Part shown: one piece after another, positions 17,516 to 62,219 of the stretch | Layout: each line of letters opens with the position of its first letter | Numbering within the stretch: position 1 is the first letter of the stretch | Source: an uncultured Gemmatimonadales bacterium | GTDB taxonomy: Bacteria; Gemmatimonadota; Gemmatimonadetes; Gemmatimonadales; GWC2-71-9 | Assembly (NCBI GenBank): GCA_963821525.1 | Contig: CAWGED010000019.1 | Span: 320,001-384,000, forward strand | Length of the DNA: 64,000 nt | Reading direction: 5' to 3' | Notes under the pieces: generated by a model | What the model was told of the DNA's origin: nothing | Seen by the model: the letters and a program-made list of their open reading frames with translations, nothing else | Database searches by the model: none | Program-made: the position numbers and the translations under genes

Positions 17516-18330
17516 TTAGGATCCTGATTTCCCCGGCATGGTCCCCGGCGGCGGGGCGAGCGGAGCGTAGCGGCTCCGAACGTAGTGTGCGGCGCGGTCA
17601 CTCAGATAGGCACACACCGCCGCCGAGAGGATCGGCAGCCCCAGGACCAGAAGTCGGTATATCTCACCGCTAACCACGTGGGTTCCTCCCCCTCCGATCC
17701 CCACGGAGCGCAGCGTCGATTTCCATTGCGAATCGGTATAAGTGTTGGCAACCCACCACCCCGCAGCGAGGCCCGCGAGGGCCGGCAGACGGGGGAAGAG
17801 CCGATCGTGCAATTGTCGCTTCAGTGCCCGGCCTAACAACTTCCCCTCATCAACAAGTCGGCCTTTCCAGGCAACGGGTACTGCCTCGGGCTCTACCGCC
17901 GAGGTCCGAGGCTCGGCTGCCACCACCTTCTCCGATCGTTTGCCGGCCGCTGCTCCCAGCTCCTCGTAGAACGGACGCAAGTCCGAGTTACAACGATGGC
18001 GCTGGTTTCGGAGAATCGCTCGGCTGCACATCCCGCGTAGGATGACGAGCGGACGCATACTGCGTGAGACAGTGGCGTAGTCCGCTCGGTCGGTCTCGAG
18101 CGAGTGCGCGATCGCCTCGTCCAACGCATCTATGCTTCCGCGAAGCCGCCGAACGGTCTCCGGCAGCTGCCCGACCCCAGGCCGAGCATCTCGTTCGAGG
18201 AATGCGGCGAGCGCCTCGCCCGCGCGGGCCCGCTCGTCCCGTTCTCGTCGCTCAGCGGCGCGGAGGCGGATGCCATGAAGCATGTCGTCGAGGCGGGCGA
18301 GGATCACAACCGAGGTCTCCGAAGCGAGTG
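17516..18330 (-). CDS. Hypothetical protein with C-terminal membrane segments (start uncertain)
   Basis: Long ORF with a helical N-terminal part and two hydrophobic segments (LPALAGLAAGWWVA, LLVLGLPILSAAVCAY). No family recognised. Confidence 0.5.
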
Positions 18331-18444
18331 TCCCCCTAAGATTTGCAAGAGGCGTGCACGAGCGGGACGGCGGCCTCTCGGAGGTGGCCGGGGAGGAAGT
18401 CGCGAGGCGATCTTGCAAACTCAGCCAAACCACTGCACTGTGAA

Positions 18445-18608
18445 GGTGGGCGGAGATCCACGCCCAACCTCTTCGACCCTCCCCCAGCGAGGGTCTTCGT
18501 GAGGCAAAGGGGGGCACACTCCCGGATCGCATCGCCAGACCTTTGCGTCGCCTCGGGGCGCCGCTGCTGGGGGGCATGCGTCTCAGGCCTGACCAAAGGA
18601 CTGTTCCG
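18445..18608 (+). ncRNA. Candidate structured cis-regulatory leader RNA (pseudoknot plus RBS switch)
   Basis: Hairpins GGGCG/CGCCC and GACCCTC/GAGGGTC; loop CCCCAGC complementary to GCTGGGG (18566-72); CCTTTGCGTC pairs with either 18501-10 or the RBS region 18591-99. Confidence 0.5.
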
Positions 18609-19319
18609 ATGACGACCAACAAGGATTTCAAACGCCTGGTTCGCGGGCGGATGCAGAAGACGGGCGAGTCCTACACCGCCGCCCGGGCCAACCTCCTGAA
18701 GCACTCACCCACTCCTACTCCCAAGCAGGCTCCCGCGGCGATCGACTACGCCGGTCTTGCCGGTATGAGCGACGCCACGATCAAGGCCAGGACCGGGTGT
18801 ACCTGGGAGCGCTGGGTCTGGGCCCTCGACCGCGTGGATGCTCACCTCTGGCCCCACCGGGAGATCGTCGGGTACGTGCAGGAGAAGTACAAGGTCCCCG
18901 ACTGGTGGACTCAGGCGGTCACGGTGGGTTACGAGCGGATCAAGGGTCTTCGAGTGAAAGGCCAGCGGCGGGACGGCCATTTCGAGGCTAGCAAGAGCAA
19001 GGTATTCGGAGTCTCAAGGTCCTCGCTCTACCGGGCATTCCATGACGGGCGCACCCGCGCCCGGTGGCTACCCGACGTTGACCTCAAGATCCGGACGGCC
19101 ACCCGCGAGAAATCCATGCGAATCACCTGGCCGGACCAGACGCTTGTGGAGCTCAACTTCATGTCCAAGGGCGCTCGGAAGAGCCAGGTGGCGATCCAGC
19201 ACTCGAGATTGCCGGACAAGGCCGCGGCATCGAATATGAAGGAGTTCTGGGCCGCGAAGCTCGCCGCTCTACAGGACGTGCTGGGCGCGGCGCCACTGAC
19301 TCGATCAAGGCCGGCCTGA
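18609..19319 (+). CDS. Protein with short basic N-terminal KTGESYTAAR module, a DUF4287-like middle domain and an SRPBCC-like C-terminal domain
   Basis: MTTNKDFKRLVRGRMQKTGESYTAARANLL; SDATIKARTGCTWERW...WWTQAVTVGYERIKG; SKSKVF...LYRAF...KEFWAAKL. Confidence 0.75.
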   Translation: MTTNKDFKRLVRGRMQKTGESYTAARANLLKHSPTPTPKQAPAAIDYAGLAGMSDATIKARTGCTWERWVWALDRVDAHLWPHREIVGYVQEKYKVPDWWTQAVTVGYERIKGLRVKGQRRDGHFEASKSKVFGVSRSSLYRAFHDGRTRARWLPDVDLKIRTATREKSMRITWPDQTLVELNFMSKGARKSQVAIQHSRLPDKAAASNMKEFWAAKLAALQDVLGAAPLTRSRPA

Positions 19320-20430
19320 TGCATTTGCTCTGGTGGATTCTCGGTACCTTCGTCTTGCTCTATCTGGTGCAGAGCATCTACCTCGGCGTCGTATTGAAGT
19401 GGGAAGACGAACGGACGGCCGGCCTCGGGTACTATGGCCGGCCGCCCGCCGAGCGGGAGGGATTCAAGCGCCAGCTCCGGCTGCATGCCGTGCTGCTGGC
19501 GCCTATCCTCTGGCTCAACGGCCGTCTCGCCAAGATGGATTTCCGACGGGCCAGCATGAGCTACAAGGGTGTGGCGGGTCCGGCGGGAAGTTGTACGCCG
19601 GAGACCTTCGCGCGGGCCGAGCAGTATCAGCCTTGCCCCGAAGACATCTTCGTCGTCACCCAGATGAAGTGCGGGACTACGTGGATGCAACACGTGGTCT
19701 ATGAAGTGTTGAACCGCGGCAATGGAAACCTGGTCGCCAGCGGCACCGAGATCTACGCGGTTTCTCCCTGGATCGAGGGCCGCCGCAGCGTTCCATCGAC
19801 CAGGCACCGCTCATCGGCGCCGAGCGGCCTTCCCGAATCATCAAGACCCATCTCCCCGGTCAACTCTGTCCCGCGTCGGCCCAGGCCCGCTACATCTACG
19901 TCGCGCGGCATCCAGTCTCCTGCTTCGCGAGTTGCGTGGACTTCGTCGCGACCAATGTGGGCAGGATGGCGCCGCCCCCGGCGGCTTTCGAGGAGTGGTA
20001 TTGCTCCCCGGAGCTCATGTGGTGGGGCACCTGGACCGACCATGTTCGGGGCTGGTGGGACCGGAGCCAGAAAGACGGCAATGTGTTGTTCTTATACTTC
20101 GAGGACCTGAAGCGTGACCTGCCTGGCATCGTGCGACAGGTAGCCGGGTTCCTCGGTGTGAAGCCGCTCACCGATCAGGAGCTTCAGCAGGTGGTAGAGA
20201 AGTGCGGCTTCGCGTACATGCAGGAGCACAAGAACAATTTCGAGATGCAGCCGCCTCACGTGATGCAGACCAATGCCGACCTGTTCGTGCGCGGCACGGC
20301 CGACCGGCACAAGGACGTCGCCCCCGAAGTACGAAAGCGGCTCGGTGCCTGGGCGGCCCAGCAGCTCGACGGGAGCGCCTTTCCGCTCCGTAAGGCTTAT
20401 CCCGACGTGATCGGAGAGGCTGGCAGGTAG
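19319..20430 (+). CDS. PAPS-dependent sulfotransferase with N-terminal membrane anchor; frameshift near 19797
   Basis: 5'PSB-like EDIFVVTQMKCGTTWMQ, IIKTHLP, 3'PB-like YVARHPVSCFAS, LFLYFEDLKRDL. TGATG overlap with the upstream gene. Confidence 0.8.
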
Positions 20431-57594: not shown

Positions 57595-57668
57595 TCGGGA
57601 CGGCGGGATTCGAACCCGCGACCCCCTGAACCCCATTCAGGTGCGCTACCGGGCTGCGCTACGTCCCG
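57595..57668 (-). tRNA. tRNA-Pro(GGG), no encoded CCA
   Basis: CGGGACGTAGCGCAGCCCGGTAGCGCACCTGAATGGGGTTCAGGGGGTCGCGGGTTCGAATCCCGCCGTCCCGA folds as a cloverleaf. Confidence 0.95.
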
Positions 57669-62055: not shown

Positions 62056-62127
62056 AGCCACTGGTCGGAATTGAACCGACGACCGCTCGATTACGAATCG
62101 AGAGCTCTACCGCTGAGCTACAGTGGC
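62056..62127 (-). tRNA. tRNA-Thr(CGT), no encoded CCA
   Basis: GCCACTGTAGCTCAGCGGTAGAGCTCTCGATTCGTAATCGAGCGGTCGTCGGTTCAATTCCGACCAGTGGCT. Confidence 0.95.
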
Positions 62128-62137
62128 GGAAGACGCA

Positions 62138-62219
62138 TGCCCTGGCGCGGATTCGAACCGCGACGCCTTTCGGCACTACCCCCTCAAGATAGCGTGTCTA
62201 CCAGTTTCACCACCAGGGC
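62138..62219 (-). tRNA. tRNA-Leu(GAG), no encoded CCA
   Basis: GCCCTGGTGGTGAAACTGGTAGACACGCTATCTTGAGGGGGTAGTGCCGAAAGGCGTCGCGGTTCGAATCCGCGCCAGGGCA, with a long variable arm. Confidence 0.95.

Follow-up and report, generated by a model that had tools for sequence, protein, structure and literature searches.

The window analysed here, a 64-kb stretch from an uncultured Gemmatimonadales bacterium, carries a 5′ leader of ~165 nt (18447-18611) between a divergent hypothetical frame and a gene for a 236-aa protein on the plus strand (18609-19319). Its nearest relatives, identified by protein query, are Gemmatimonadales genomes. The encoded protein consists of an Arg/Lys-rich N-terminal module of about 30-31 residues (18609-18701, plus strand), a linker, a helical DUF4287-like domain and a C-terminal AHSA1/SRPBCC fold. 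A sulfotransferase gene (19319-20430) overlaps the stop codon of this gene by one base. It is split by a frameshift near 19795 and forms one frame of 369-370 aa in L001-L003; the split is either an assembly error or a recent pseudogene. Elsewhere in the window, three tRNA genes lie on the minus strand (57595-57668 and 62056-62219).

The leader, all features of which are on the plus strand, is preceded by a sigma-70-like promoter (18413-18441) composed of a -35 element TTGCAA (18413-18), a spacer of 17 nt and a -10 element CACTGT (18436-41), as the original prediction had proposed, with a predicted transcription start at 18447-18449. The pattern is kept in homologues: TTG-N-16-18-NANNNT is found 5-10 nt ahead of the first helix, P1, in 76 of 84, compared with 159 of 5000 random windows. 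All words listed in that prediction are in place, and those checked include the strands of its P1, GGTGGGCG (18445-52) and CGCCCAACC (18461-69), as well as CCTTTGCGTC (18540-49), GAGGCAAAGG (18501-10), GACCAAAGG (18591-99) and the ATG at 18609.

Of the four close relatives compared, three lose homology to the window at 17516 and regain it at 18448; ~930 bp including the promoter differ, while the leader is retained from its first helix. These three (L001, L003 and L010) have other upstream sequence with its own promoter, a terminator-plus-promoter situated between an RND efflux operon and the leader where the window has 17517-18447. The ~930 bp of the window, with the divergent frame, are shared with L002. 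Metatranscriptome contigs from two studies, which cannot show transcript ends, continue from the leader into the gene, and no terminator was found between the two. In three of four runs the contigs start at 18460-64, a weak hint of a 5′ leader, since neither the strand nor the start of a transcript can be read from contigs. Word shares in sequencing runs are small and say nothing about habitat. No further copy of the leader was found in the same genome.

Covariation and architecture of the leader

The protein query returned 32 loci, 30 of which include the N-terminal residues; the leader is present in all 30, 16 of these being training rows of the RNA model. The N-terminal module, searched with a profile of 33 columns (A1), matches 80 metagenome loci, six viral loci and 37 plasmid records, 12 of which were taken up. 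Pairing was evaluated on two alignments. A2 is structure-blind and holds 63 rows chosen from 100 non-redundant leaders, excluding 29 close Gemmatimonadota-type rows and eight others, mostly the most divergent (L137, L150, L152, L154-L158). A3 is model-fitted and holds 87 distinct rows; the fit leans to nested helices, but neither pseudoknot is part of the model.

On A2, 92.3% of cells are paired, against 41-55% in slid controls, and two-sided changes occur in 38 of 50 pairs, a result that none of 500 shuffles equalled on any of the five measures. On A3, two-sided changes occur in 40 of 50 pairs. Alignment rows are related rather than independent, and the changes recur across phyla. The check on homologues that the original prediction called for has thus returned a conserved, covarying structure. 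Taken alone, the folding energy of 18430-18625 departs only modestly from that of shuffled sequences (z -1.90; 8 of 200 shuffles); the beyond-chance evidence is the covariation together with the promoter pattern at a fixed distance. Three unpublished genomes contribute to the data set, namely G252 (two of the 22 module genes described below, L173 and L199), G087 (one of nine pairs of RNA and module, also A3 row L135) and G018 (A3 row L040); the conclusions hold without them.

The 5′ core begins with the P1 hairpin (18449-52/18461-64), which is nearly invariant, with 99% of cells paired and two-sided changes in one of four pairs (A2). Its GGCG/CGCC core is conserved as predicted. The proposed GGT/AACC extension was rejected: 18445-47 vary while AAC is fixed, and 18468-71 pair instead with 18501-04. 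The P1 loop holds the 5′ strand of pseudoknot 1, GATCC (18455-59), which pairs with GGATC (18524-28) and shows two-sided changes in five of five pairs, with 95.5% paired (A2). A conserved AA, unpaired in the model, follows at 18466-18467 (83/85 and 85/85 rows). P2 (18468-18504) comprises P2a (18468-71/18501-04; two-sided 2/4 on A2) and P2b (18475-81/18489-95), the GACCCTC/GAGGGTC stem with loop CCCCAGC that had been singled out from the window and now shows two-sided changes at all seven pairs (A2). The unpaired junction CAAA (18505-18508) is invariant, at 85/85 rows in all four positions, and leads into the P3 hairpin (18509-13/18519-23), where two-sided changes affect 2/5 pairs with 94.9% paired on A2 and 3/5 with 99.5% on A3.

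The 3′ half of the leader is a long irregular hairpin (P4-P6, 18540-18599), in which the anti-Shine-Dalgarno strand 18540-49 pairs with 18591-99, across the Shine-Dalgarno AAAGGA (18595-18600). This pairing, part of the original prediction, has two-sided changes in nine of nine pairs (P4a/b, A2), so the Shine-Dalgarno covaries with its partner. P4c adds 5/5 and P6 (18562-65/18573-76) 4/4 on A2, and the stem 18540-54/18584-99 reaches 14/14. The basis for P5 (18555-61/18578-84) is energy folding only. In the full-length nested ensemble the hairpin has a probability of 1.0. Since P6 turns GCTGGGG into a 7-nt hairpin loop at the tip, the 7-bp pseudoknot that had been predicted is a loop-loop kiss (18482-88/18566-72), complementary at 7/7 positions and joining the P2 loop to the tip of the hairpin that hides the Shine-Dalgarno. 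The kiss is 97% paired, with two-sided changes in 3/7 pairs on A2 and 4/7 on A3. Other matched kiss words are CCCCGGC/GCCGGGG, CCCCCGC/GCGGGGG, CTCACGC/GCGTGAG, CCCACGC/GCGTGGG, CCCACAT/ATGTGGG and CCTGCGC/GCGCAGG. Pseudoknot 1, P3 and the presentation of GCTGGGG as a hairpin loop are additions to the earlier model. This is a real, intricately folded mRNA leader that covers the ribosome landing site.

The N-terminal module and its distribution

In the AlphaFold model of the 236-aa protein, two helices come first, a linker predicted with low confidence follows, and the chain ends in a helical domain and then the AHSA1/SRPBCC domain. The module itself forms a clear-cut pair of helices in the prediction (residues 3-18 and 22-31; pLDDT 91-95); its homodimer prediction scores 0.02. 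At E<=0.001 it is found in 3048 protein clusters at 50% identity. At the loci examined it is always at the extreme N-terminus, ahead of a variable linker. The bodies behind it include nitrilase, BtrH_N with DUF4872, FtsK, DUF4287-like/AHSA1 and others without an assigned family; Pfam found no DUF1835 in L147. Its invariant Arg, Tyr and Thr residues are encoded by several codons, which indicates that selection acts on the protein. RNA structure extending into the coding sequence was rejected as the cause of peptide conservation because synonymous codons vary. Synonymous heterozygosity is somewhat lower in the module (0.40) than downstream (0.52-0.55), and a mild constraint is possible. The module matches no family, RNA-binding families included; a PDB sequence search and the Atlas gave no match to it, nor did GenBank phages. 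In fold comparisons UBA, EF-Ts and ANTAR helices come out level as its nearest counterparts, all at Z <5 (best Z 4.7), which is a lead only.

RNA and module are closely linked. Across 151 Gemmatimonadota genomes, the RNA model and the module profile mark the same 20, and all 22 module genes have the leader, one of them partial. All 20 RNA matches in Gemmatimonadota end at the start of the module; in G216 only the 3′ half remains and the module is cut after ~14 residues. The two module genes that bring the total to 22 have divergent leaders (46 bits). In 151 genomes from the phylum of G061, a Vicinamibacteria record that we take to belong to Acidobacteriota, nine of 11 RNA matches precede a module, the other two being a 5′ remnant and a probable chance match, and a tenth module gene is preceded by a leader that scores weakly (27.8 bits). 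A search of 151 genomes from the class of G062 (Alphaproteobacteria) gave no matches, though rhizobial plasmids carry the cassette. The cassette is also found on plasmids and viral contigs, and cultured carriers include Rhizobium, Sinorhizobium and Streptomyces plasmids. At seven loci the protein match starts after the module; six of these lack an RNA match, and at the remaining one, L043, a different frame encodes the module. These body-only loci, together with the variety of bodies, indicate that the leader is linked to the module and not to the body.

The suggestion in the original prediction that similar leaders precede genes with the same N-terminal peptide in Actinobacteria proved sound, as they were found in Actinomycetota. 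These leaders are divergent, and RNA model R1 scores them poorly (2/14 at E<0.01). A strict stem-and-kiss detector recovers one of eight new actinobacterial loci against a background of 86/1500, and a looser position-anchored test, designed after viewing those sequences, recovers six of eight against 105/3000.

Several variants of the cassette were observed. G230 holds a second cassette (L198:1434-1602) with different kiss words and a different protein body, and G156 also has two cassettes. Decayed copies include L178 (G216), with the 3′ half of the leader and a truncated module, and L187 (G117), with the 5′ half and no module gene. Module-like peptides without this leader are found at L144, L145, L192 and L194. 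Two of these are Streptomyces plasmid genes that share a different short conserved upstream element (L192:830-900, L194:820-880). The other two are on viral contigs and encode small proteins (L144:1498-1899, L145:1495-1671), one of only 59 aa, which may be a trans-acting mimic.

Proposed switching and mode of control

In the original prediction, the anti-Shine-Dalgarno strand alternated between the ribosome binding site and an upstream strand at 18501-10. This upstream helix is not conserved, with two-sided changes in 2/9 pairs on A2 (396/500 shuffles) and 1/9 on A3 (277/500). Six of the seven two-sided cells on A2 are in one column and appear to come from nitrilase-type rows shifted by one base. 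The strand 18501-10 is occupied by P2a, the invariant CAAA junction and P3. Changes in the anti-Shine-Dalgarno strand are followed by the Shine-Dalgarno and not by 18505-08, and the helix was therefore rejected as a conserved element. At position 18544 (A3), the Shine-Dalgarno partner has 21 two-sided changes, while the upstream partner remains A and 26 rows are unpairable. In nested folding of the window sequence the helix can form transiently (0.38 at transcript end 18550).

A better rival state is a candidate hairpin at 18545-18564, an extension of the previously noted CGCC-TCGG-GGCG hairpin that is mutually exclusive with P4b/c, P5 and P6. As an ON state it is moderately supported. Measured against shuffled sequences, the 5′ arm of the long hairpin folds on itself more stably than chance (mean z -1.07, vs +0.18 for the 3′ arm; 78 sequences). 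With dinucleotide shuffles the value is -0.74, with p of 0.004 for 39 representatives, 0.046 for 22 and 0.30 for 12 deep clusters. Fixed-column covariation of the hairpin is weak, failing on A2 (364/500 shuffles) and mixed on A3 (score 3/500, pairs 314/500), since the register of the hairpin shifts from row to row. In nested folding its probability is 0.54-0.97 at transcript ends 18578-18600, and it gives way at full length to the hairpin that buries the Shine-Dalgarno (1.0), to which it yields earlier if the kiss strands are held out. Constrained energies, from folding runs that ignore pseudoknots, are -76.8 kcal/mol for the OFF fold, -64.4 for the local hairpin and -66.7 for the rival helix.

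From these data we infer that the leader acts as a switch, probably a self-regulating one. The cassette would constitute a portable translational control made of promoter, folded leader and small basic N-terminal module. In the OFF fold, which covariation shows, the compact 5′ core (P1, P2, P3 and pseudoknot 1) kisses the tip of the long hairpin that buries the Shine-Dalgarno. During transcription the local hairpin 18545-64 may hold the 5′ arm, leaving the Shine-Dalgarno briefly free and giving ribosomes a kinetic window for loading. Once the protein is complete, its module would then bind the core or the kiss, possibly at the conserved AA and CAAA, and speed the OFF fold. In this way each cassette could cap the level of whatever body is fused behind the module.

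Autogenous translational repression through putative binding by the module has about an even chance of being correct, and the direction of control, repression or activation, is a guess. This reading is favoured over its rivals because nothing else tracks the RNA as closely as the basic peptide encoded immediately after it, irrespective of the body. Weighing against it, the module matches no RNA-binding family (best Z 4.7), the ON hairpin fails A2 covariation and loses its energy signal at 12 deep clusters, and module-like peptides occur without the leader (L144, L145, L192 and L194).

The invariant junction nucleotides of the doubly knotted core would also suit a riboswitch, in which the core would bind a small molecule or an ion that secures both the kiss and the Shine-Dalgarno hairpin, and the module would play a part of its own linked to the same signal. 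A kiss between core and expression hairpin is likewise described for cobalamin riboswitches in the accessible part of PMC9600662. The downstream bodies share no common pathway, while the module is nearly always present, and no Rfam riboswitch model scores, which makes a riboswitch unlikely. Alternatively, the leader or a processed form of it might assemble with the module into a ribonucleoprotein that holds the enzyme off until stress cleaves or displaces the RNA. Such a structural role would account for a stable kiss and for more structure than simple operators need, and it agrees with the presence of the cassette on plasmids and viral contigs and with the second copy in G230, which has different kiss words. 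It is distinctly unlikely, given that the covarying Shine-Dalgarno pairing points to translation control in cis and that no terminator precedes the gene, with metatranscriptome contigs of two studies, whose ends are not visible, running from leader to gene.

The extreme N-terminal position of the module, the variable linker behind it and its many basic residues could reflect a nascent peptide that stalls the ribosome or refolds the leader in cis rather than a free RNA-binding domain. This is very improbable for a unit predicted to form two good helices (pLDDT 91-95), and a ribosome on codons 1-30 is already downstream of the Shine-Dalgarno to be controlled. Least probable of all is an RNA element, whether self-cleaving, catalytic in some other way or selfish, that carries the cassette to further genes, as the double pseudoknot, patchy distribution (20/151 genomes) and sharp 5′ homology edge at P1 are met by the lack of any scoring ribozyme model, a single copy in the genome and no adjoining mobility gene within the window.

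The cassette may represent a new class of portable RNA-peptide units, a tentative generalization held at somewhat less than even confidence. In such units an RNA-binding helical hairpin of 31 residues would travel with the doubly knotted leader that is its cognate, the two becoming attached to unrelated genes in at least four phyla, and interchangeable kissing words of 7 nt would allow several copies within one cell to fold, and to be regulated, without interfering with one another. They would serve as a plug-in for protein-level homeostasis or as a stress-released switch. The leader constitutes an uncatalogued, well-covarying bacterial RNA family tied to a module of about 3000 clusters. If the module binds it, one peptide and one 165-nt RNA form a minimal pair that is movable before any protein and might serve as a small feedback device; should the leader prove to be a riboswitch, its ligand would be a new one.

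Comparison with known systems

At the gathering threshold, Rfam 15 identifies only three tRNAs in the 64-kb window. Around the leader the best E is 2.7, eight divergent loci give no matches, and none of the ribozyme covariance models matches the leader. The nearest candidate, sot2652, was rejected as a chance-level score (11.5 bits vs 61 needed). That the leader is not a named riboswitch, as originally supposed, is borne out by the absence of any Rfam family at threshold.

The kiss recalls ColE1, where RNA I and RNA II pair through complementary loops of 7 nt that are bound by Rop, a small helical-hairpin protein. The leader resembles this system in its 7-nt complementary loops and in the predicted helical hairpin of the module. 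Unlike in ColE1, both loops are in one mRNA leader, and PDB and fold comparisons gave no sequence or fold match to Rop.

Among fold comparisons, chains of EutV, NasR, AmiR and Rv1626, which we take to be ANTAR-bearing, rank 8-24 for the module model (Z 3.8-4.2), tied with UBA and below significance. The Pfam ANTAR family matches 0 of 19 module members, and a fold Z of about 4 is not specific. ANTAR proteins are described, in the part of the source available, as a small helical RNA-binding unit acting on a leader that overlaps the ribosome binding site (PMC8164766). Their RNAs are dual hairpins with A1/G4 hexaloops, whereas the covarying loops of the leader have 8, 7, 5 and 7 nt.

No description of the leader motif was found in the literature, although the supplements of PMC5737381, PMC11109978 and bioRxiv 10.64898/2026.10.21.760802 and the COMPASS database may hold it. 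Two COMPASS clusters, #630,527 and #566,452, are covarying uncharacterised leaders in the portion of that preprint seen (bioRxiv 10.64898/2026.10.21.760802). They are alike in preceding mixed enzymes or a protein with a YndB-like (AHSA1) domain. As far as the partial descriptions go, #630,527 lists glyoxalase, flavin monooxygenase and NmrA, none of which is behind this leader, and #566,452 has its YndB-like domain at the N-terminus rather than, as here, at the C-terminus; the clusters were compared by description and may be identical to the leader.

Cobalamin riboswitches, according to an excerpt of PMC9600662, form an L5-L13 kissing loop between a 5′ core loop and a loop of the expression platform. 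The leader has the same kind of contact in an analogous architecture. It differs from them in its core, in the downstream genes, which are not corrinoid genes, and in the lack of a cobalamin match in Rfam.

Autogenous leaders offer a further parallel. The text available from PMC11109978 defines autogenous 'protein binding candidates' by a structured 5′ UTR over the ribosome binding site and a product that is a plausible RNA binder; ribosomal-protein leaders such as rpsF/S6:S18, the subject of PMC3895269, are of this kind. The present leader is structured, overlaps the ribosome binding site and co-occurs with one protein unit encoded directly downstream. In contrast to those systems, its partner is a 31-aa module on unrelated bodies and not a ribosomal or known nucleic-acid-binding protein, and no Rfam leader model scores. 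The leader belongs to no catalogued family, and its mode of action would resemble that of a ribosomal-protein operator combined with a kiss of the cobalamin type.
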